From: a virus
Lineage: Duplodnaviria > Heunggongvirae > Uroviricota > Caudoviricetes
Length of the DNA stretch: 34,300 nt
Virus record (IMG/VR): IMGVR_UViG_2778261246_000006
Reading direction: 5' to 3' (one strand)
The position numbers and the translations under genes are program-made. A model generated the notes under the pieces. It was not told the DNA's origin, searched no databases, and saw only the letters and a list, made by a program, of their open reading frames with translations. This document shows, piece after piece, positions 2,371 to 24,156 of this stretch. The stretch's first letter is position 1, and the number at the start of each line of letters is the position of its first letter.

Positions 2371-2886
2371 TTGACCATGTTTGATTACCAAGTTTCCAAA
2401 CATCCACATTTTGATGAAGCCTGTCGTGCATTCGCATTGCGCCACAACCTGGTGCAACTGGCAGAACGTGCTGGCATGAATGTGCAGATTCTGCGGAACA
2501 AGCTGAACCCAGCTCAACCTCATTTATTAACCGCACCAGAAATCTGGCTGCTTACCGATCTGACTGAAGATTCAACGCTGGTAGATGGTTTTCTGGCACA
2601 GATTCATTGTCTGCCATGTGTACCGATTAATGAGGTGGCAAAAGAGAAACTGCCACATTACGTCATGAGTGCAACCGCAGAGATCGGGCGTGTTGCTGCA
2701 GGTGCGGTATCTGGCGATGTAAAAACCTGTGCCGGTCGTCGTGATGCTATCAGCAGCATTAACTCTGTAACACGACTGATGGCGCTGGCGGCTGTTTCAT
2801 TGCAGGCCCGTTTACAGGCTAATCCTGCGATGGCGAGTGCAGTTGATACCGTGACTGGCCTCGGTGCTTCATTCGGTTTGCTGTGA
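2371..2886 (+). CDS. cII: CII-like lysogeny establishment regulator (186 CII family, 171 aa)
   Basis: Position after apl; size and sequence character resemble 186 CII as recalled from memory (not verified by search). Confidence 0.7.
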
Positions 2887-2893
2887 GGTGCTT

Positions 2894-3094
2894 ATGCTGA
2901 CGAAAGAACCATCATTTGCATCGCTGCTGGTAAAACAAAGCCCGGCAATGCACTACGGTCACGGCTGGATCATGGGTGAGGATGGTAAACGCTGGCATCC
3001 GTGCCGTTCACAAGATGAATTGCTGGCAGAACTATCTACGAAAAAACGGGGGAACAAATGGCTATTGAAGGCACTGCGGCGACTGTTCCATTAA
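2894..3094 (+). CDS. Small early protein (67 aa), possibly Fil-like
   Basis: ORF with GAGGTG RBS before the ATG at 2894 (MLTKEPSFASLL...); function assignment is a guess from position in a 186-like early operon. Confidence 0.35.
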   Translation: MLTKEPSFASLLVKQSPAMHYGHGWIMGEDGKRWHPCRSQDELLAELSTKKRGNKWLLKALRRLFH

Positions 3095-3399
3095 GCCCCG
3101 GTGAACGCCTGAATGGACTTAATCACATTGCGGAATTAAGGGCGAAAGTTTTTGGCCTGAATATTGAGTCAGAGCTTGAGCGGTTTATTAAAGATATGCG
3201 TGATCCATGGGATATCAATAATGAACAAAATAAAAGGGCACTGGCTGCCATATTCTTTATGGCAAAAATTCCAGCTGAACGTCATAGCATCAGCATTAAT
3301 GAGCTGACCACTGACGAAAAGCGGGAGTTGATTAAAGCAATGAATCATTTTCGTGCAGTGGTGAGCTTATTTCCCAGACGGCTAACCATGCCGAATTAA
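3058..3399 (+). CDS. Hypothetical early protein (113 aa)
   Basis: ORF with GGGGGA RBS; overlaps the previous ORF by 37 nt; no motif recognised. Confidence 0.45.
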   Translation: MAIEGTAATVPLSPGERLNGLNHIAELRAKVFGLNIESELERFIKDMRDPWDINNEQNKRALAAIFFMAKIPAERHSISINELTTDEKRELIKAMNHFRAVVSLFPRRLTMPN

Positions 3400-3927: not shown

Positions 3928-4781
3928 GCACCATCCTGAAATGGGCGGGAAATAAAACCGCCATTATGTCCGAACTGAAAAAACATCTTCCTGCTGGCCC
4001 GCGACTGGTTGAACCTTTCGCGGGGTCCTGTGCTGTGATGATGGAGACGGATTATCCCAGCTATCTGGTTGCGGATATTAATCCTGATTTAATCAACCTC
4101 TATAAAAAGGTTGCCGCTGATTGTGAATCGTTTATATCTCGCGCCAGAGTTTTATTTGAGATCGCAAACAGGGAGGTGGCTTATTACAACATAAGGCAGG
4201 AGTTTAATTACTCAACTGAAATTACTGATTTCATGAAAGCGGTATATTTCCTGTATCTCAATCGTCACGGTTACCGTGGTTTATGTCGCTATAACAAGAG
4301 CGGGCATTTCAACATTCCCTACGGTAATTATAAAAATCCGTATTTCCCTGAAAAAGAAATTCGCGCATTTGCAGAAAAGGCCCAGCGAGCAACGTTTATC
4401 TGCGCCAGCTTTGATGAAACGCTGGCGATGTTGAAGGCGGGGGATGTGGTGTATTGCGATCCGCCGTATGACGGTACGTTTTCCGGCTATCACACTGACG
4501 GCTTCACTGAAGATGACCAGTATCACCTGGCATCTGTTCTTGAACATCGGTCATCAGAAGGACATCCGGTCATTGTTTCTAACAGTGACACATCCCTGAT
4601 CCGTTCGCTGTATCGCAATTTTACTCACCACTACATCAAGGCAAAACGCAGCATCGGTGTGGCAGCTGGTGATAGTAAATCTGCAACAGAAATCATTGCT
4701 GTTTCCGGGGCGCGCTGCTGGGTGGGATTTGATCCTTCGCGTGGCGTAGATAGTTCTGCTGTGTACGAGGTGCGTGTATGA
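3924..4781 (+). CDS. dam: DNA adenine methyltransferase (Dam-like, GATC-type N6-adenine MTase)
   Basis: [12 protein letters not shown]-terminus, [12 protein letters not shown]-binding motif, catalytic DPPY (YCDPPYDG); GGAGG RBS 6 nt upstream of the ATG at 3924. Confidence 0.9.
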
Positions 4782-7192
4782 GTCATGACGATATGAGCAA
4801 CTCTAGCGGCTTTAACGAGGCCGCTGCATCATTTTCATGGAACGGCCCGAAAAAGGCCATTAACCCTTATCTGGACCCGGCGGAATTTGCGCCGGAGTCT
4901 GCACTTTCAAACCTGATCACTCTGTATGCTGCCGATAACGAGCAGGAACAACTGCGCCGCGAGGCACTGAGTGAGCAGGTCTGGGAGCGTTATTTCTTTA
5001 ATGAATCCCGTGATCCTGTCCAGCGCGAAATGGAGCAGGATAAGCTCATTAGCCGCGCAAAGCTTGCGCATGAGCAGCAGCTTTTTAACCCGGACATGGT
5101 CATTTTGGCAGATGTCAGCGCCCAGCCTACCCACATCAGCAAGCCGCTGATGCAACGTATCGAATACTTCAGCAGCCTGGGCAGGCCAAAGGCTTATTCC
5201 CGCTATTTGCGTGAGACGATTAAGCCATGTCTGGAGCGACTGGATTGTGTACGCGACAGTCAGCTATCCGCTTCTTTCCGTTTTATGGCAAGCCATCAAG
5301 GGCTTGAGGGCCTGCTGATCCTGCCTGAAATGAGTCAGGATCAGGTAAAACGCCTGTCCACCCTGGTAGCTGCGCATATGAGCATGTGCCTTGATGCCGC
5401 TTGTGGCGATTTATATGCCACCGATGACGTTAAGCCAGAAGAAATCCGTAAGACATGGGAAAAGGTGGCAGCGGAAACCCTGCGACTGGATGTTATCCCG
5501 CCTGCGTTTGAGCAACTCCGCCGGAAAAGAAACCGCCGCAAACCCGTGCCCTATGAACTCATACCGGGTTCGCTGGCACGTATGCTTTGCGCCGACTGGT
5601 GGTATCGAAAATTGTGGAAGATGCGTTGCGAATGGCGGGAAGAGCAGTTGCGTGCTGTCTGCCTAGTCAGCAAAAAAGCATCTCCCTATGTCAGCTATGA
5701 AGCCGTGACGCATAAACGTGAGCAGCGCCGTAAGTCGCTGGAGTTTTTCCGTTCTCATGAACTGGTGAACGAAGACGGCGACACGCTGGATATGGAAGAT
5801 GTGGTAAACGCCAGCAGCAGCAACCCGGCACATCGCCGCAATGAGATGATGGCCTGTGTTAAAGGTCTGGAGCTTATCGCAGAAATGCGTGGTGACTGCG
5901 CCGTTTTCTACACTATCACCTGTCCGTCACGTTTCCATTCCACGCTCAACAACGGCAGACCCAACCCGACCTGGACAAATGCGACGGTAAGACAAAGCAG
6001 CGATTATCTGGTCGGCATGTTTGCTGCATTTCGTAAGGCTATGCACAAAGCCGGGTTGCGCTGGTATGGCGTGCGGGTGGCTGAGCCGCACCATGACGGT
6101 ACTGTGCACTGGCATCTCATGTGTTTCATGCGCAAAAAAGACCGCCGCGCCATTACTGCATTGTTGCGTAAGTTTGCCATCCGTGAAGACCGCGAGGAAC
6201 TGGGTAATAACACTGGTCCACGCTTTAAATCTGAGCTGATAAACCCACGCAAAGGAACACCGACAAGCTACATCGCGAAATACATCAGTAAGAACATTGA
6301 CGGGCGTGGTCTGGCTGGCGAGATCAGCAAGGAAACGGGTAAATCCCTGCGTGATAATGCTGAATACGTTAATGCCTGGGCGTCTCTGCATCGTGTTCAG
6401 CAATTCCGCTTCTTTGGCATTCCGGGGCGTCAGGCTTACCGTGAACTGCGATTGCTGGCTGGTCAGGCGGCAAGGCAACAGGGGGACAAAAAAGCAGGTG
6501 CGCCGGTACTGGATAACCCGCGCCTTGATGCCATCCTGGCTGCTGCTGATGCTGGTTGTTTTGCCACCTACATCATGAAGCAGGGCGGCGTACTGGTTCC
6601 CCGCAAATATCACCTTATCAGAACAGCTTATGAAATTAACGAAGAGCCGACTGCTTATGGCGATCACGGTATTCGTATTTATGGCATCTGGTCACCCATT
6701 GTACAGGGCAAGATTTGCACTCATGCAGTGAAGTGGAAAATGGTTCGTAAGGCCGTTGACGTTCAGGAGGCGGCAGCCGACCAGGGCGCTTGCGCCCCTT
6801 GGACTCGTGGCAATAACTGTCCCCTTGCTGAAAATTTGTACCAACAAGGGAAAGACAAATCAGCTGATGGAGATACCAGAACGGATATCACCCGCATGGA
6901 TGACAAGGAGTTGCACGATTACCTGCACAGTATGAGCAAAAAAGAGCGCCGGGAACTGGCAGCAAGGTTACGCTTGGTGAAACCGAAACGGCGTAAAGAC
7001 TACAAACAGCGAATTACAGATCATCAGCGACAGCAGCTCGTGTATGAACTGAAGTCCAGGGGATTTGATGGCAGCGAGAAAGAGGTCGATTTACTGCTTC
7101 GCGGCGGCAGTATTCCGTCAGGAGCAGGCCTGCGTATCTTCTATCGGAACCAGCGTTTGCAGGAAGATGATAAGTGGCGAAACCTGTATTAA
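4778..7192 (+). CDS. A: Replication initiation endonuclease A (rolling-circle HUH nickase, P2 gpA / 186 A)
   Basis: 804 aa; HUH-like VHWHLMCF and twin-tyrosine YIAKYISK motifs; position after the early operon. Confidence 0.9.
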
Positions 7193-7344: not shown

Positions 7345-7533
7345 ATGCAGGACTATTTTTTGGAGTCTTTGAAGCTCCAGCGCATTGATTTTTTTCTTAA
7401 GCTTGTAGCGGCTAGTGAGTGTAGTGATGAAGAGAAGGGGCTGGCTTTGCAGTGGGTTTCTGAACTGACTGATGAACTCATGGCGAAAATCAGAACCCAC
7501 GAATACAATCGCTCAATGGATGTCATCAGCTGA
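7345..7533 (+). CDS. Small protein (62 aa) downstream of the LexA box; possible Tum-like antirepressor N-terminal part
   Basis: Strong RBS (AGGAGG) before the ATG at 7345; immediately followed in another frame by the DinI-like ORF. Confidence 0.45.
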   Translation: MQDYFLESLKLQRIDFFLKLVAASECSDEEKGLALQWVSELTDELMAKIRTHEYNRSMDVIS

Positions 7534-7543
7534 GGTGACTTTT

Positions 7544-7777
7544 ATGCGCATTGAAATAATGATCGATAAAGAGCAGAAGATTAGCCAGTCTACCCTGGAC
7601 GCCCTTGAATCCGAGCTTTACCGCAATCTGCGCCCCCTGTATCCCAAAACGGTAATTCGTATCCGTAAAGGTAGCTCTAACGGTGTGGAACTGACCGGAC
7701 TGCAACTGGACGAAGAAAGAAAACAAGTGATGAAAATTATGCAGAAGGTGTGGGAAGACGACAGCTGGCTGCATTAA
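7544..7777 (+). CDS. DinI-family protein (77 aa)
   Basis: MRIEIMIDK...ELYRNLRPLYP...KIMQKVWEDDSWL matches the DinI fold pattern recalled from E. coli DinI (MRIEVTIAK...ILQETWE..DDW); GAGGTG RBS. Confidence 0.75.
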   Translation: MRIEIMIDKEQKISQSTLDALESELYRNLRPLYPKTVIRIRKGSSNGVELTGLQLDEERKQVMKIMQKVWEDDSWLH

Positions 7778-7899
7778 GAAACGTTGCTGGCGTCTGAACT
7801 TGCTTCTGGCGTCAGCAAGGTTGAACAACGAGCTGTGCGAGGCGTTAGTTGATATAGTATCAATATATAAAAGGTTTCTCGAAGTTTTAAGGTAAGGTT

Positions 7900-8619
7900 A
7901 TGACAACTATTAACAAGCATGGGTTATCTAGAACAATTCCTGAACCTGTAAAACTGGAGGTAAGGCAGCGCTGTGGCTTCGGTTGCGTTGTTTGTGCTTC
8001 TCCCATTGTTGAGTATGAGCATGTAATTCCCACATACGCTGATGCAAAGGAGCACTCTCCAAATGCAATAGCACTACTTTGTCCTACGTGCCATGCGAAA
8101 GTAACGAAACGTCTTTACTCTAAAGAGAAAATCATTAAAGCAATGGAATCTCCTGCAGCCTTACAAAAAGGGAATGTGGCCGATATATTGGACTTTTCTG
8201 ATAGGCATCCAATAATAATATTTGGTGGTGCGACGTTTGAATCCTGTACTGTACCAATAATGTTTCAAAATGAGCCATTGTTAACCATTGAAAAAGAAAA
8301 TAATGCTTTTCTTATTTCGGGTAAATTTTACGATAGTCAAGGTATTGTTAATCTTGAATTAATTAAGAATGAGTGGGTATGTAGTGCAAGGCATTGGGAT
8401 GTTCAGGTTGTCGGTCCTAGAATAACTATTATAGAAAAAAGGAAAGGTCCTCGTTTAATTATTAAAGTTGATGCGCCTGAAAGATTGATTGTGGAAAGAT
8501 TAGATATGTTGGTTAAGGGGACTCGGATTGTAGGAGACGAACACAAGCTAAGAGTCGGTCCACATCAATTTCACAACTGTGGAGTTTCAAATTGCAATAT
8601 TGGTTTCTGCTTTGGCTAA
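7900..8619 (+). CDS. HNH-motif nuclease-domain protein with unknown C-terminal domain (239 aa); cargo gene
   Basis: N-terminal CGFGCVVC...EYEHVIP...NAIALLCPTCH (CxxC/H-N-H/CxxCH arrangement); markedly AT-rich relative to flanking phage genes; own RBS. Confidence 0.6.
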   Translation: MTTINKHGLSRTIPEPVKLEVRQRCGFGCVVCASPIVEYEHVIPTYADAKEHSPNAIALLCPTCHAKVTKRLYSKEKIIKAMESPAALQKGNVADILDFSDRHPIIIFGGATFESCTVPIMFQNEPLLTIEKENNAFLISGKFYDSQGIVNLELIKNEWVCSARHWDVQVVGPRITIIEKRKGPRLIIKVDAPERLIVERLDMLVKGTRIVGDEHKLRVGPHQFHNCGVSNCNIGFCFG

Positions 8620-8732
8620 CTGGAGGTTGGAAAAAGACCATTTCCTATAAGCTGAGTATTTCGTGCATTTTTGCCAACGCATGTCTATGCCGCATGAAAT
8701 CGCATGATCGTTTGAGGATCGTTTTTGCTGAT

Positions 8733-8759
8733 GCCCGCCAGAGCTGGCGGGCTTTTGCT
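8733..8759 (+). terminator. Candidate rho-independent terminator after the HNH gene
   Basis: GC-rich inverted repeat GCCCGCC...GGCGGGC followed by TTTTGCTT. Confidence 0.4.
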
Positions 8760-8881
8760 TATGTCATGCAGGTGCATGAAAACCACTACACAAAGCGGGC
8801 AGGCGTGGCGGGGATACGAGCGCGCGCAAACATGTTTACTTGCAATTAATGTAGATATATTCTGAAATTGATAACTTACAC

Positions 8882-9091
8882 ATGAAAGGAGACGTGAGAG
8901 TGGCAAAATATACACCGGGCCAGAAAGTAAAACATGCAACAGGACATGGTCCAATCATGGTAATTGATCACTACCAATCGGCTACAATGGCAGTTTGTAC
9001 GTGGTTTATTGGTGCTAAGAACCAGCGCGGAGTTTTTCACGAAGATACTCTAGTTTTATTTGTTCCAAAAGCTGAGAGTGATGATGAATGA
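8882..9091 (+). CDS. Small protein (69 aa), YodC/DUF2158-like
   Basis: Pattern GQKVKHATGHGPIMVID...CTWFIGAKNQRGVFHEDTLVLF resembles the GDxVxLKSGGPxMTV...CxWF...F motif of DUF2158 as recalled; start could instead be an internal GTG. Confidence 0.45.
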   Translation: MKGDVRVAKYTPGQKVKHATGHGPIMVIDHYQSATMAVCTWFIGAKNQRGVFHEDTLVLFVPKAESDDE

Positions 9092-9350
9092 TTCTCTGAT
9101 AAAAATAGTTGACTGGATGGTTAATACCACTCGTTCTAATGGTGTGTTGTATCAGTCCGAGGTTGTTGAATTTCTAATCAATGACTTTGGGGACGAGTTC
9201 ATCAAAACTAATGAGAATGGTAATTACGCTATAAGCAGTACTGTGCTAGCAAATTTTAGAAAGGCTAGCAAAGACGATATAGTTTGGGATCGTGAACAGT
9301 TAGCTTGGCGTTTACGCAATGAAAGCGATTTACCCGGACGGATGCAGTAG
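9084..9350 (+). CDS. Hypothetical small protein (88 aa), translationally coupled to the upstream gene
   Basis: ATG at 9084 overlaps the upstream stop (GATGATGAATGA); AT-rich; no motif recognised. Confidence 0.45.
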   Translation: MNDSLIKIVDWMVNTTRSNGVLYQSEVVEFLINDFGDEFIKTNENGNYAISSTVLANFRKASKDDIVWDREQLAWRLRNESDLPGRMQ

Positions 9351-9367
9351 AGATAATACAGATAATA

Positions 9368-9407
9368 GTGAACAAGCTGATAATTTCAACTTGTTCACTT
9401 CTTTTTT
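9368..9407. terminator. Bidirectional rho-independent terminator between the cargo island and portal gene Q
   Basis: Perfect 9-bp inverted repeat GTGAACAAG / CTTGTTCAC followed by TTCTTTTTTAT; lies between convergent genes. Confidence 0.6.
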
Positions 9408-10449
9408 ATGACTGATTATTTTCTAAGCCATAATATTCAAATTTGACTACCTCTTCATCTAACCATTCATTAATTTCGGCAATGCGTTTTTGTAAAGGCA
9501 TCAGTTCATTCCGAACAAATACCCGGCTGGCTTTCTCCACATCCCCAAACCCCCCTACATTATTAGGCATAATCCCCATCATCTGCGGCGGCACTCGGTG
9601 TGCTGCCATCATGTCGTCCCGGCTCACGTTCTTGATATTTAGAAACTCATCCTTCGCCGCGACTTCTGACAACGGGATGATCTGAAGCCCGTCCTTTTTG
9701 CCGTTAGGCGAGTACATAAACAGATTGCGGAAGTTACCTGGTCCTTTGGCGCTTTTCATCGCATTGCGGAGGTTGTTCACATCCTCCTGGTTTTGCGCGG
9801 CATCGGTCATGTACATAATGAAGCCTGCATGACTGCCGTTAATGTAATACTTTCGACGGAACAGCGTGGCGGACTCGTTGAGCAGGGCAGACGGAATGGC
9901 AGAAAGATAGCCGGGCAGGCCGTAGATCTCCTGATTAATATCCGGTTCCATCAGATGAAAAATGCTGCCTTTCGTGAACTGATACGGCTGGGTTGTCATA
10001 CCGTATTGCATAAACCAGTAGGTATCCAGGTCTAACCCGCGTCGGGTGTATTTTGCCAGAGCAGGCTCAAGGGCTATAACTTCACCGAAGCGGTTCGTGC
10101 GTTTCTCCAGGTAGGCGTTACCAAATACCAGATAGTCCTGCACAAAACGTGAAAAAGCCTGCTGGCTGAGCAGCGGGTGAGGGATGTAGGTACTGGTCAG
10201 AATGTTGCATTTCACCGCAATTGGTGAGCTGTGATGCACGGCGGCGCGGAAGGTTCGTGCCAGTCCGTCAAAGCTGACGGGCGGCTCATACCAGCGATCC
10301 ATCTGTACGCATTCCACATAGTCCAGCAGTTCACGGCGGTCCAGAACAGGAACGGGATCGCCAAAGCTGAATGCTTCGGCTGAAGTCTGGCTTTTATGCT
10401 TGAGCTGATTCGTCGCCGCAGCGCGGTTTTTCTTACTCTTTCCCATCAA
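9406..10449 (-). CDS. Q: Portal protein (P2 gpQ)
   Basis: 347 aa, first gene of the leftward late operon, adjacent to terminase; P2 Q-like size and order. Confidence 0.9.
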   Translation of the reverse strand: MMGKSKKNRAAATNQLKHKSQTSAEAFSFGDPVPVLDRRELLDYVECVQMDRWYEPPVSFDGLARTFRAAVHHSSPIAVKCNILTSTYIPHPLLSQQAFSRFVQDYLVFGNAYLEKRTNRFGEVIALEPALAKYTRRGLDLDTYWFMQYGMTTQPYQFTKGSIFHLMEPDINQEIYGLPGYLSAIPSALLNESATLFRRKYYINGSHAGFIMYMTDAAQNQEDVNNLRNAMKSAKGPGNFRNLFMYSPNGKKDGLQIIPLSEVAAKDEFLNIKNVSRDDMMAAHRVPPQMMGIMPNNVGGFGDVEKASRVFVRNELMPLQKRIAEINEWLDEEVVKFEYYGLENNQS

Positions 10450-12212
10450 AAAATCTCCACAATATTGCTGGTATTGGCGGATTCGCCCTGCAGCGGTTCG
10501 TTAAACAGTGCGTGCATCGTTGCCCAGGCCAGATCGGCGTGGCTGGCTTCTTCGCTGCGGCTGGCTTCATAGGTCGGGCGGTTGCCGCTGGCGGTGGTGG
10601 CGCGACGGATTGCCATGAATGACTGCGCAATGTCGGTGTGCCCGGCGTCAAACTCCAGACGGCGGTGGCTGATAATGTCGTAGGCCTTGAGTACCAGGGC
10701 GTTTTTAACGTTGGGGTTGTAGACAAACTCCCGGACGGCAGGAAAGAACGCTTTCACGTTCTCGTAAACCCCGTGACCAACGCCGGTTGAGTCGATACCG
10801 ATATAAGTCACGTTGTACTGTTCGGTAAGTTTTTTGATGGCGTCAGCCTGGGCGCGGAAGTCCATCCCGCGCCACTGGTGACGCTCAAGAATGCGGAACT
10901 TACCACCCGGCACGGCTGGCGGTGCCACCACCACGCATCCAGCGCTGTCGCCGTTTTGCGTACCTTTTGCCGGGTCATAACCGATCCACACTTCGCGCCA
11001 GCCAAACGGGCGCAGCGCCAGTGCATGAAAGTCGGTCCAGACTTCCCAACTGTCCACCATGCACGCCTGCAGCTCGCTGAGCGGAAACACGGACGCGAGA
11101 TCGTCCACAAACTCGCACATCAGCAGGTTCTGGTATTCGTCCGGGCTGTACTCCATGCGTAGCTGGTCGAGGTCGAACAGGTTACAGCCGCCGCGCACCG
11201 CATCTTCCACGGTGACTATCTGGCGGTATTGCCCGTCTGCGCACAGCAGGCCGGGGGCCAGATTGCTGTGGGACAGATCGATGTCCACCTTATCGGCTTT
11301 GTTGCGCCCACGGTTGAACAGCGCACCGGACCAGAACGGATAAGCACTGTGTGTCAGACTGGATGGCGTGGAAAAATAGGTTTGTCGCCATTTTTTGTGA
11401 ATAGCCATACCGGAAGCCACTTTGCGCAGCTCCTGGAATTTCGGTATCCAGAAATATTCATCCAGATACAGGTTGCCGTGGTAACTCTGGGCCGTGCGGG
11501 CATTGGTGCCGAGGAAGTAAAGCGTGGCCCCGTTAGGAAGCACCATCGGATCGCCTTTCAGCTCCACCTCCACTTCTTTGGCAAAGTCGATGATGTACTG
11601 TTTAAAGACGTGGGCCTGAGCCTTGCTGGCAGAAAGGAAAATCTGGTTACGCCCGGTCAGCAGGGCGTCAATCAGGGCTTCACGGGCAAAGTAAAAGGTC
11701 GCGCCGATCTGGCGTGACTTCAGCAGGTTGCGGATGCGGTTGGTTTTTCCGGCTTCCCACCAGTGGCGCTGGTAGTTGAACATAGAGGAATGGAAGATTT
11801 CTTCCAGTTTCTCAATCTGTTCATCGGTGAAAACATTCTTTTCCGGCTGACGACGTGGGCCTTTGTTGCGGTTGGCAACGTTAGGGTTTAAGTCGGCTTC
11901 ATTGCCGCCATTGTTAAACTTGCCGATCCGCGCGTGGCGCTCAGACTGGCGTGCCAGCAGGTCAATTTCTTTGAAATCTTTCCCTTCTTTGTGCTCCTTC
12001 ATAATGAGCTGGCAGTAGCGTGCGGCGGTGGTGAGCTGCATCTGATCCAGCGGCCCATAGTCACCCCACTTGTCGCGTTTTTTCCAGCTGTGAACGGTTG
12101 CAACTTTCTCGCCCAGCATTTCAGCAATGCGGGCTACGCGGTATCCCTGAAAGTACAGCAGCATGGCCTGCCGACGGGGATCGAGATCTGCGGGTGTCAG
12201 TGTGGTGTTCAT
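10446..12212 (-). CDS. P: Terminase large (ATPase) subunit (P2 gpP)
   Basis: 588 aa; Walker B-like LYLDEYFW; divergent from scaffold gene O as in P2. Confidence 0.9.
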   Translation of the reverse strand: MNTTLTPADLDPRRQAMLLYFQGYRVARIAEMLGEKVATVHSWKKRDKWGDYGPLDQMQLTTAARYCQLIMKEHKEGKDFKEIDLLARQSERHARIGKFNNGGNEADLNPNVANRNKGPRRQPEKNVFTDEQIEKLEEIFHSSMFNYQRHWWEAGKTNRIRNLLKSRQIGATFYFAREALIDALLTGRNQIFLSASKAQAHVFKQYIIDFAKEVEVELKGDPMVLPNGATLYFLGTNARTAQSYHGNLYLDEYFWIPKFQELRKVASGMAIHKKWRQTYFSTPSSLTHSAYPFWSGALFNRGRNKADKVDIDLSHSNLAPGLLCADGQYRQIVTVEDAVRGGCNLFDLDQLRMEYSPDEYQNLLMCEFVDDLASVFPLSELQACMVDSWEVWTDFHALALRPFGWREVWIGYDPAKGTQNGDSAGCVVVAPPAVPGGKFRILERHQWRGMDFRAQADAIKKLTEQYNVTYIGIDSTGVGHGVYENVKAFFPAVREFVYNPNVKNALVLKAYDIISHRRLEFDAGHTDIAQSFMAIRRATTASGNRPTYEASRSEEASHADLAWATMHALFNEPLQGESANTSNIVEIF

Positions 12213-22053: not shown

Positions 22054-22488
22054 GTGTTTTTTAGTCCATCTTTAAATATTTTTGTGAATCCTGCGCTTAA
22101 GGATGACTACATCAATGTAAATTCATGGCCAGATGATGCTGTTGAAGTTGATGAGCAGGTGTATATTGAGTTTTCCGGATTACCGCCGAAAGGAAAAATC
22201 CGTATCGCTGGGGAAAATGGTTTTCCTGCATGGTCTGAAATTCCACCACCAACGCATGAGGAACAGATTGCCGCAGCCGAATTGAAAAAACAGCAATTGA
22301 TTAATCAGTCCAACGAATATATGAATACCAAGCAATGGCCTGGTAAAGCGGCTATTGGTCGTCTGAAAGGTGAGGAACTGGCGCAATATAATTTGTGGCT
22401 GGATTATCTGGACGCACTGGAACTGGTTGATACCTCCAGTGCTCCAGATATTGAATGGCCTACGCCTCCGGCAGCTCAGGCCAGATGA
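22054..22488 (+). CDS. G: Tail fibre assembly chaperone (P2 gpG / Mu U-like), currently in the expressed orientation
   Basis: 144 aa; conserved C-terminal ...DTSSAPDIEWPTPP; GTG start right after the H stop. Confidence 0.75.
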   Translation: MFFSPSLNIFVNPALKDDYINVNSWPDDAVEVDEQVYIEFSGLPPKGKIRIAGENGFPAWSEIPPPTHEEQIAAAELKKQQLINQSNEYMNTKQWPGKAAIGRLKGEELAQYNLWLDYLDALELVDTSSAPDIEWPTPPAAQAR

Positions 22489-23053
22489 CATCAGGCGCGG
22501 TGCTGGTATCTGTTGCCGTCACCGCGTCAATGTAATCCAGCACAATGTTAAGTCGGGTGGTTTCTGCCTGCATTAGCTTCCGTCCGGCCCGTAATTTCAG
22601 CTGAATCAGACTGATGGAAGCCATTGCAGCATCAATCAGTGACTGGCGCTGTGCTTCTGCCGCTTCTACTGCGGCACCGTGTTGTGCCTCAGTATCTGTC
22701 ACCCATTTCTCACCATCCCATTTATCATATGGCGTTAACGGTGAAAGCGTGACATAACCGTTTTTGATGGCACCGATATAATCCACTGTAACAGCTGCGC
22801 CATTTTCGATTGAGTAAACAGTCTCATTGCGATGGTCTTCTTCATGGCTCCATCCCTTACCCGTAAATACTGCCACTTTTCCCGGAATGTTTTCGCCAGG
22901 GTCAATACCAGTGGAACAGGCGGGCATACTTACGCCAGTATTAATATATTCATCAGACCAGCCCGTATATTCATACGTTACTGCATCATAATAAAAACAA
23001 CGCATATCACCCGGCACTGTAGCCAGTCCATTTTCATCAAAAACAGGTTTCAT
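22460..23053 (-). CDS. Alternative tail fibre assembly chaperone (U'-like) in the silent orientation
   Basis: 197 aa; C-terminal ...DTSTAPDVIWPELPEA parallels gpG; convergent with G, 3' ends overlapping by 29 nt. Confidence 0.75.
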   Translation of the reverse strand: MKPVFDENGLATVPGDMRCFYYDAVTYEYTGWSDEYINTGVSMPACSTGIDPGENIPGKVAVFTGKGWSHEEDHRNETVYSIENGAAVTVDYIGAIKNGYVTLSPLTPYDKWDGEKWVTDTEAQHGAAVEAAEAQRQSLIDAAMASISLIQLKLRAGRKLMQAETTRLNIVLDYIDAVTATDTSTAPDVIWPELPEA

Positions 23054-23562
23054 TATTTAGCCCTTACTAAAAAGTTGAATGCGATGTTACGGGGACGCGT
23101 TTCAGTACCGCCTGGGTTTTGAAAAGCGGGCAAAGCACTTCCAGCCGGCTGACTAACGCCGCTGGTATATAATGGAGAAGCATTCGAAACGGTGCCAAAC
23201 ACTACATTACTGCCACTTCCATTTAGCCCTAAAATTTTATGCTCGTGCGTTTTGAAATCGTCTGATTGCGCGGAAAGTAACGCACGGCCACTATCAACAC
23301 CACGGCCATCATCCCAGATACGAATGAAATCACCGCGGGCTTCAGGTAATACCAGCGAAGGAAACACTTTTGCCAGCACAGGATAATCAGTGGCAGAGAA
23401 TTTCGCGCCGTTGAACTTCAAAAACACCATACTGGACCAGCTGTCGATTACAGTATTTGGCATTGCAGCGGACGGCCAGAAGAACGGAACGCCAATAGCT
23501 GGAGCACCTTCTCCCAAACCAACGTTTAAGAAAATGCAGAGGTAACAGCTAACTGGCATCAT
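23053..23562 (-). CDS. Alternative tail-fibre variable C-terminal segment (Sv'-like), promoterless; would fuse to the H constant region after inversion
   Basis: Minus-strand frame reads ...LGLGEGAPAIGVPFFWPSAAMPNTV..., sharing the LGLGE junction with H at the crossover site; the functional coding part starts at the crossover (~23520), not at the ORF-track ATG. Confidence 0.6.
   Translation of the reverse strand: MMPVSCYLCIFLNVGLGEGAPAIGVPFFWPSAAMPNTVIDSWSSMVFLKFNGAKFSATDYPVLAKVFPSLVLPEARGDFIRIWDDGRGVDSGRALLSAQSDDFKTHEHKILGLNGSGSNVVFGTVSNASPLYTSGVSQPAGSALPAFQNPGGTETRPRNIAFNFLVRAK
23509..23532. repeat. Right inversion crossover site (inverted relative to 21691-21716)
   Basis: TTCTCCCAAACCAACGTTTAAGAA; inverted repeat of the site inside H. 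Confidence 0.65.
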
Positions 23563-23589
23563 CTCCGGTTTTTATTCAGGGGGATGATC

Positions 23590-24156
23590 ATGCTTATTGG
23601 CTATGTACGCGTGTCAACAAATGACCAGAACACCGATTTGCAACGTAATGCACTGAACTGCGCGGGATGTGAGCGGATTTTTGAGGACAAAATCAGTGGC
23701 ACTAAGTCCGACAGACCGGGGCTGAAAAAACTACTCAGGACACTATCGGCAGGAGACACGCTGGTTGTCTGGAAGCTGGACAGGTTGGGGCGCAGTATGC
23801 GGCATCTTGTTACGCTGATAGAAGAGTTGCGCCAGCGTGGTGTGAATTTCAGAAGCCTGACTGACAGTATTGATACCAGTACCCCAATGGGCCGTTTCTT
23901 TTTTCATGTCATGGGTGCCCTGGCTGAAATGGAACGCGAACTGATAGTTGAACGTACCAGGGCAGGGCTGGCTGCAGCTCGTGCCAAAGGCAGAGTAGGT
24001 GGACGCCGTCCTAAGTTGACCACCGAACAGTGGGCACAGATTGGGCGTTTACTCGAGGCCGGAGAATCAAGACAGCGTATTGCACTGATTTTTGATGTAG
24101 GCGTTTCTACCATTTATAGAAAATTTCCGGCAAATAAGATCAATGAATCCCCCTGA
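23590..24156 (+). CDS. pin: Serine DNA invertase (Pin/Cin/Gin/Hin family)
   Basis: MLIGYVRVSTNDQNTDLQRNALNCAG... catalytic Ser in YVRVST; C-terminal HTH; near-identical in character to e14 Pin as recalled. Confidence 0.95.
   Translation: MLIGYVRVSTNDQNTDLQRNALNCAGCERIFEDKISGTKSDRPGLKKLLRTLSAGDTLVVWKLDRLGRSMRHLVTLIEELRQRGVNFRSLTDSIDTSTPMGRFFFHVMGALAEMERELIVERTRAGLAAARAKGRVGGRRPKLTTEQWAQIGRLLEAGESRQRIALIFDVGVSTIYRKFPANKINESP

Follow-up and report, generated by a model that had tools for sequence, protein, structure and literature searches.

The 34,300-nucleotide (nt) stretch of viral DNA recorded as IMGVR_UViG_2778261246_000006, hereafter the window, is a nearly complete P2/186-like prophage, and between its replication gene A and its portal gene it carries two small open reading frames (ORFs) on the plus strand, ORF1 (8900-9091) and ORF2 (9084-9350). 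We found that ORF1 encodes what appears to be a divergent DUF2158/YodC protein and ORF2 a DUF6953 protein with a predicted winged-helix fold, and that the two genes overlap and recur together across bacterial phyla and phages. Judged by comparison with related prophages, the pair behaves as a self-contained, horizontally mobile accessory operon that occupies a slot next to the cos site. We infer, tentatively, that the two proteins work as a binding module without enzymatic activity, which would act in phage-host or phage-phage conflict or in regulation, a function that we regard as possible rather than probable.

Both ORF1 and ORF2 are genuine coding genes, and the purifying selection on them is strong. 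Comparison of the window with a copy of the region in Klebsiella gives a ratio of nonsynonymous to synonymous substitution rates (dN/dS) of 0.05 (ORF1) and 0.08 (ORF2), with dS near 0.9. Because these ratios are low and the pair recurs with overlapping junctions across phyla, the two frames stand above chance, and the two overlapping co-directional genes proposed by an initial annotation of the window hold up. The genes meet at GATGATGAATGA (9080-9091), where the TGA stop of ORF1 occupies 9089-9091 and ORF2 could start at ATG 9081 or ATG 9084. The Klebsiella copy, 81% identical over the region, has AAG at the first of these positions and keeps both the second ATG and the TGA, so ATG 9084 is the conserved start and gives an ORF2 product of 88 amino acids (aa). 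The start of ORF2 thereby lies inside the end of ORF1, in the coupling junction ATGAATGA (8 nt, 9084-9091, plus strand), and an 8-nt overlap of the form ATGA(A/G)TGA is also present in Klebsiella. The 77-aa RefSeq call for ORF2, which starts at 9117 and drops the nearly invariant W11-M12 of helix 1, is probably wrong. For ORF1, the initial annotation had given 69 aa from an ATG at 8882; the frame stands, whereas the start more likely lies at GTG 8900, yielding 63 aa. This start is preferred because an AAGGAG Shine-Dalgarno sequence (8886-8891) precedes the GTG with an 8-nt spacer and because the 63-aa form is RefSeq WP_024169233.1 and matches the gene calls in 63-aa homologues, while ATG 8882 lacks a Shine-Dalgarno sequence.

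The start/stop overlap is kept in about 25 independent loci. Across the pairs collected, the junction is ATGA or GTGA in about 15 loci, TAATG in 4, and a gap of 2-7 nt in a few. Such junctions are the classical signature of translational coupling, and we conclude from them that ORF1 and ORF2 are coupled in this way, as had been proposed. The sole Shine-Dalgarno-like element upstream of ORF2, a weak GAGAG, fits termination-reinitiation. Similarity to pair-less prophages stops at 8827, and the AT-rich region that follows on the plus strand (8828-8899) is specific to the pair and presumably holds its promoter and 5′ untranslated region. Candidate hexamers there are TTGCAA (8840-8845) with either TATATT (8856-8861) or TGAAAT (8863-8868), and TTGCAA and TATATT are kept in the Klebsiella copy. 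Downstream of the pair, a hairpin at 9367-9399, with a 14-base-pair (bp) stem and T-runs on either side, is the equivalent of the P2 terminator tQ, which is annotated at the matching place relative to gene Q. By its sequence this hairpin can serve, on both strands, as a bidirectional terminator for the pair transcript and for the convergent portal/terminase operon. Within this hairpin, on the minus strand, is the region's best match to a sigma-70-like promoter (9362-9389; TTGAAA-16-TATTAT, 10/12); as a candidate promoter it faces antisense into the 3′ end of ORF2, and AT-rich DNA could produce such a match by chance. A 29-codon frame on the plus strand at 8777-8866 was considered as a coding sequence or leader peptide and rejected, given that it spans cos and has a stop codon in Klebsiella. 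A single database protein (P0011, 104 aa) has this frame fused to ORF1 and is an annotation or variant artefact. An Rfam scan of 8600-9450 returned a single chance-level match.

The initial annotation had placed ORF1 in the YodC/DUF2158 family, and the comparison bears this out. The family motif, G-D-x-V-x-L-K-S-G-G-P-x-M-T-V ... (C/T)-x-W-F-x-G-x-K ... F, is present in ORF1 with I22 instead of the final V and a one-residue insertion in the GGP loop, which reads 'TGHGP'. When ORF1 was aligned with 11 positional partners, G7, V10, G15, G17, P18, W35, F36, G38, K40 and F46 were invariant, and all 12 sequences matched Pfam PF09926 (best 7.6e-15). ORF1 itself scores 19.5 bits as the 69-aa form and 19.7 bits as the 63-aa form (E ~8e-4), slightly below the gathering score of 22.3, a shortfall that coincides with the extra residue in the GGP loop and would be explained by it. 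PHROG 3261 is matched as well (E = 1e-7), and a profile built from the partners, which includes near-identical E. coli copies, scores ORF1 at 89 bits. ORF1 thus shows the motif and the homology of the family while falling short of the gathering threshold, and we read it as a divergent DUF2158/YodC protein that ends in an acidic C-terminal tail, ESDDE. DUF2158 proteins are probably small SH3/KOW-like beta-barrels. Genes of this family are common in phages, with 129 confirmed loci obtained from one peptide pattern. In enterobacteria, yodC is a solo, RpoS-induced chromosomal gene (PMC5437024), and in the searched literature DUF2158/YodC appears in tabular mentions and in one note on UG2 systems only. 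Another DUF2158 protein, WP_001547483, has 17 entries with varying neighbours among the cargo of P2/P4 hotspots (supplementary file 6, PMC9122126), and YodC-type genes may be a general feature of these hotspots.

ORF2, which had been described as having no recognisable motif, is assigned by profile search to PF22266 DUF6953 with 84.7 bits (E = 4.8e-24) over profile positions 4-73 of 74, well past the gathering threshold of 27 bits; it also matches PHROG 10782. Word-indexed homologue searches, including one with a profile, returned close relatives only, and an exhaustive search recovered 638 representative relatives at E <= 1e-3. The near-invariant residues W11, M12, Q24, N43, G46, F58, W68, W75, R76, R78 and D82 are all present in ORF2. 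An AlphaFold2 model computed with a 70-sequence alignment has a predicted local distance difference test score (pLDDT) of 93.6, and the single-sequence model (pLDDT 53) was unusable. The modeled topology is helix-strand-helix-hairpin-helix-wing, that is, a winged helix with an extra hairpin bearing a conserved NxNGN, and the structures that it matches best are the winged helix-turn-helix (wHTH) domains of CapW and BrxR, two regulators of defence systems. Six basic residues (R59, K60, R70, R76, R78 and R86), located on helix 3, the wing and the C-terminal tail, are 67-96% conserved across the 70 homologues, and this basic face makes nucleic-acid binding by ORF2 plausible but not assured. A search of the viral fold collection BFVD with the ORF2 model gave no match at E <= 1e-3, searches of PDB sequences with ORF1 and ORF2 gave noise only, and we found no literature on DUF6953.

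The two families are associated well beyond the window. In a genome scan that started from DUF6953 and took one genome per species (26 loci, 35-46% identity), a DUF2158-like ORF lay directly upstream of the DUF6953 gene on the same strand in 10 loci and nowhere else in those loci. The paired loci come from Polyangiaceae, Nitrincola, Castellaniella, Nitrosomonas, Verrucomicrobiales, Planctomycetaceae, three Rhodobacterales and Sneathiella, and so span Myxococcota, Alpha-, Beta- and Gammaproteobacteria, Verrucomicrobia and Planctomycetes. All four distant viral loci have the same arrangement, which brings the combined count to 14 of 30 distant loci. Reciprocally, the next gene was DUF6953 in 15 of 80 phage loci carrying DUF2158. 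When the downstream neighbours of 78 DUF2158 genes were clustered (61 with a callable downstream ORF), DUF6953 formed the only large cluster and every other cluster had at most 3 members. Taken together, the counts indicate that the pairing is specific and ancient, extends across phyla and phages, and did not arise by chance. Nothing was found when the pair was searched by blastn and tblastn against 50,697 phage records; it is known only from prophages, metagenomic viral contigs and bacterial genomes.

Domain fusions point the same way to a limited extent. One protein, P0147, joins DUF2158 (39.9 bits) to DUF6953 (91.3 bits) in the order of the genes; because it comes from a single 1-kb contig, we give it a supporting role and no more. 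DUF6953 is also found fused behind zinc ribbons, long acidic repeats, one TIR domain and one weak HEPN domain. As evidence for defence the TIR and HEPN fusions were down-weighted, being single metagenome contigs of 1-2 kb with the HEPN match below threshold. In a rough tree, paired and solo DUF6953 proteins fall into separate clades, and upstream of the solo genes there was no conserved small partner except one zinc-ribbon ORF in Paenibacillus. That ORF, in Paenibacillus tyrfis (L023:2054-2254), encodes 66 aa and precedes its solo DUF6953 gene by about 30 nt, an arrangement that parallels the zinc-ribbon-DUF6953 fusions P0063, P0132 and P0145. Rhodobacterales and Sneathiella have two more conserved small ORFs (~80 and ~103 aa) after the pair (L022:4250-4745, L024:4207-4754, L028:4072-4440), so that the module may exist in Alphaproteobacteria in a form with four genes.

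We next consider where the pair sits in the prophage. At 8802-8820 lies GGCGTGGCGGGGATACGAG, which agrees with the P2 cohesive end GGCGAGGCGGGGAAAGCAC at 14 of 19 bases; the sequence on either side can be aligned with the P2 cosR/cosL junction, that is, with the joined ends. A 150-nt stretch around it (8678-8827) is conserved in 98 P2-like phage records from at least 6 genera and is common to prophages with and without the pair. By this comparison, the stretch upstream of the pair is the prophage cos site (wider region ~8678-8842), and, with 8802-8820 as cos, the pair sits between cos and portal, at the very left of the chromosome as it is packaged. The corresponding interval in P2 holds about 140 nt and the terminator tQ only. 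The initial annotation had seen a candidate terminator after the HNH gene here; the hairpin (8733-8752, followed by a T-run) exists, and it lies inside the conserved cos region and does not belong to the HNH gene.

A modular map drawn from 25 related prophage loci indicates that cos divides the interval between genes A and Q into two cargo slots that are exchanged independently. The constant left flank (7345-7777, plus strand; boundary at ~7775-7850) consists of a conserved 62-aa ORF and a DinI-like gene of 77 or 101 aa, depending on the start. Slot 1 (~7850-8675) is variable and in the window holds an HNH endonuclease gene (7900-8619, plus strand, 239 aa; Pfam HNH, PHROG 6544) that ends about 180 nt before cos. 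Slot 2 runs from cos, its left boundary, to portal and holds the pair in the window, the pair alone in Klebsiella, and the Lamassu genes LmuA/LmuB in E. coli L73. The comparison keeps the pair apart from the HNH gene, as had been suggested, and speaks against the functional link between them that the initial annotation also entertained: slot 1 exchanges at least 8 alternative cargoes beside an unchanged pair (HipA/HIRAN, DUF8087 and several unknown proteins, for example), over 1000 E. coli genomes have the HNH gene but not the pair, and cos lies between the two. Among 5426 complete E. coli genomes, the flanking sequence is present in about 1260 and the pair in 8, and the window's combination of HNH gene and pair occurs in 0. 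The cos-adjacent HNH gene recalls the packaging-associated HNH proteins of HK97-like phages, although here it is swappable cargo. In the Lamassu locus of L73 (L001:6710-9438, NZ_CP033378.1), LmuA is spread over two ORFs of 192 and 174 aa that precede LmuB and match the two halves of the LmuA model; it may be frameshifted or genuinely split.

P2-like phages carry their main defence hotspot in the GpA-GpQ interval (PMC9122126; PMC13586616). Of the defence hotspots in P2-like prophages it is also the best studied. The pair lies between gene A and portal gene Q and varies among collinear prophages, as hotspot cargo does, and both of its proteins are catalogued as 'hypothetical' cargo of this hotspot (supplementary file 6, PMC9122126). 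The split by cos should be useful for delimiting cargo in P2-like phages.

Elsewhere the surroundings of the pair differ. In unrelated phages it adjoins a small-terminase gene or an integrase; in one of them (L053) the pair and the small-terminase gene are divergent. In three IMG/VR phage contigs (L102, L104, L127; ~2500-3360), the gene immediately after DUF2158 is small-terminase-like. Bacterial neighbours are heterogeneous and include QatABCD with HipA, restriction-modification genes, a Zot-type inovirus gene, a resolvase and housekeeping genes. A typical defence-island context is that of Nitrincola tibetensis (L007:1444-8241), where the pair is flanked by a HipA-like kinase operon on one side and by a complete QatABCD system on the other.

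We suggest that ORF1 and ORF2 would be made in coupled fashion from a single mRNA and would most likely form a stoichiometric complex of the two proteins that lacks any enzymatic domain. We propose this physical complex because the genes are coupled, one fusion exists and the two families are specifically associated; its ligand and its role in conflict are likewise proposals. The basic helix-3/wing face of ORF2 (R59, K60, R70, R76, R78, R86) would bind a conserved ligand, most likely nucleic acid, and the YodC-like ORF1 would add a second binding surface or modulate that of ORF2. Such a complex could serve the lysogen or the phage in conflict, by superinfection exclusion through binding, as with P2 Tin, or by sensing and regulation. 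P2 Tin acts by binding, not catalysis. Like the pair, tin and old of P2 are non-essential cargo of the GpA-cos-GpQ hotspot; they differ in having no sequence relationship to it and in lying to the right of cos, whereas the pair lies to the left. That the slot of the pair holds a defence system, Lamassu, in a sister prophage was counted in favour of a conflict role.

Comparison with known defence-associated proteins adds to the picture. ORF2 resembles the wHTH domain of CapW (CBASS) and BrxR (BREX), but it lacks the architecture of that family, an N-terminal wHTH followed by WYL and WCX domains. The UG2 defence reverse transcriptases are accompanied by proteins that carry a YodC domain (COG5475/DUF2158) at the N terminus, in one case joined to a WYL-like domain of regulatory type (Mestre et al. 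2022, PMC9226505); these proteins share with ORF1 the domain family, here in a defence context. In the window, by contrast, the partner is a separate DUF6953 protein and there is no reverse transcriptase. From the UG2 link it follows that YodC, wHTH and WYL domains combine variously in defence neighbourhoods, and by analogy this link supports a regulatory or sensing flavour for the pair.

Several observations weigh against a binding module with a conflict role. In PADLOC-DB v2, ORF1 had no match and ORF2 matched only JukA, at E = 0.032 and 11.7 bits. Among the 30 distant loci there was no recurrent third gene, many neighbours were housekeeping genes, and defence genes were nearby in a minority. 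DUF6953 is solo in 16 of these 30 loci, and in 63 of 78 phage loci DUF2158 has no DUF6953 partner. The DUF2158, TIR and HEPN fusions to DUF6953 each come from one metagenomic contig of 1-2 kb. A promoter scan upstream of the pair found no site at or above the 9/12 threshold. The structural matches of ORF2 also include protein-binding winged helices (cullin WHB, MAGE), the median net charge of DUF6953 proteins is 0, and the window copy has a net charge of -4 and an isoelectric point (pI) of 4.6. DNA binding is not assured because DUF6953 is not basic overall and because protein-binding winged helices are among the matches. Finally, the searched literature contained no experiment and no functionally known homologue for DUF2158 or DUF6953.

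The same features could be read in other ways. If DUF6953 were a sequence-specific wHTH regulator of its own operon or of prophage or host genes, and the YodC-like protein its co-factor or anti-factor, the pair would be a transcription-factor module with no direct role in defence. We consider this unlikely, even though the best structural matches are the DNA-binding wHTH domains of CapW and BrxR, conserved basic residues line the helix-3/wing face, a near-palindrome, TTACTTGCAATTAA, lies in the upstream region at 8836-8849, and the small acidic-tailed partner could mimic DNA. The polar and basic surface of DUF6953 is near-invariant from Firmicutes to Proteobacteria, which is unusual for lineage-specific operator regulators, and the palindrome is absent from the Klebsiella copy. 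In addition, the window ORF2 is acidic and no conserved target gene adjoins the pair. The initial annotation had instead raised a toxin-antitoxin system, which would here be a type II system in reversed gene order, with the partner neutralising the toxin and repressing the operon for prophage stabilisation or abortive infection. This now seems improbable, as the proteins show no similarity to toxin or antitoxin families in Pfam, NCBIfam or PADLOC and match no defence model. Obligate co-occurrence fails by the solo counts given above and by the solo chromosomal yodC of E. coli, both domains apparently occur in one polypeptide (P0147), and DUF6953 fuses to zinc ribbons and acidic repeats instead of pairing with a toxin. 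Two small co-directional, overlapping genes on mobile elements, one with a DNA-binding-type fold, would nevertheless suit such a system, and cargo of this type, such as HipA, is found in the same hotspot. HicAB, HigBA and MqsRA likewise combine mobility with a small first gene, a DNA-binding-type second gene and a start/stop overlap, but they share no homology with the pair, whose members are often solo and whose domains can be fused. A sensor-effector module, the other kind of pair named in the initial annotation, may still apply.

Conservation across phyla bears on a counter-defence operon of the acr-aca type, in which ORF1 or the acidic complex would inhibit a host defence and ORF2 would be the conserved wHTH regulator. 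Anti-defence proteins evolve fast, unlike DUF2158; many pairs lie in bacterial chromosomes with no phage genes nearby, and the known anti-defence genes of P2-like phages are few (PMC13586616). We give this explanation little credence, about as little as the toxin-antitoxin one, while recognising that the layout fits, with a conserved HTH-type gene behind a small gene at accessory sites of prophages, that both proteins are small and both ORF2 and the ORF1 tail acidic, and that the pair is frequent in phage contigs and at module borders (cos, small terminase, integrase). Least probable is a packaging accessory that binds near cos or works with the terminase. The pair does directly adjoin cos in the window and, in L053, the gene for the small terminase; a small-terminase-like gene also directly follows DUF2158 in three phage cases, and small terminases bind DNA through a winged helix. 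Yet the pair is dispensable, being present in 8 of the approximately 1260 E. coli genomes with this prophage type, Lamassu replaces it in the same slot, and it also occurs in non-phage chromosomal contexts.

Returning to the two-protein binding module, its genes are already known: RefSeq lists them as a 'hypothetical protein' and a 'DUF6953 family protein', and they are catalogued hotspot cargo. The DUF2158-DUF6953 module and its placement in a cos-proximal slot appear to be undescribed in the searched literature, in which we found no function assigned to either family and no paper linking the two. A stronger form of the proposal, that the pair is a new and very small (~150 aa in total) non-enzymatic conflict system that phages and defence islands carry across bacterial phyla, and whose complex senses or blocks a conserved step of the phage or of host defence, is doubtful; if true, it would provide the first function for the widespread YodC family. 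Should an exclusion, sensing or counter-defence activity prove true, the pair would represent a new minimal type of module and a first functional handle on YodC, which is conserved and RpoS-regulated in E. coli. With its own upstream region and terminator it spans about 580 bp, and it is a well-defined, easily cloned candidate.

The remainder of the window follows the order of a P2/186-like prophage. The integrase gene (1-1188) and the CI repressor gene (1428-2003) lie on the minus strand at the left end; CII and then a Dam methylase come between the repressor and replication gene A (gpA, 4778-7192). The cargo region with the ORF1-ORF2 pair extends from gpA to portal gene Q (9406-10449, minus strand), which is followed by the terminase gene (10446-12212, minus strand) and then by the head and tail genes, and host ybjL/ybjM-like genes lie at the right end. 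Within the region 22460-24156, a Hin/Cin-type serine invertase gene (23584-24156, plus strand) adjoins a tail-fibre assembly gene, and a nearby opposite-strand ORF (22460-23562) had no Pfam match. The three together suggest an invertible tail-fibre switch of host range.

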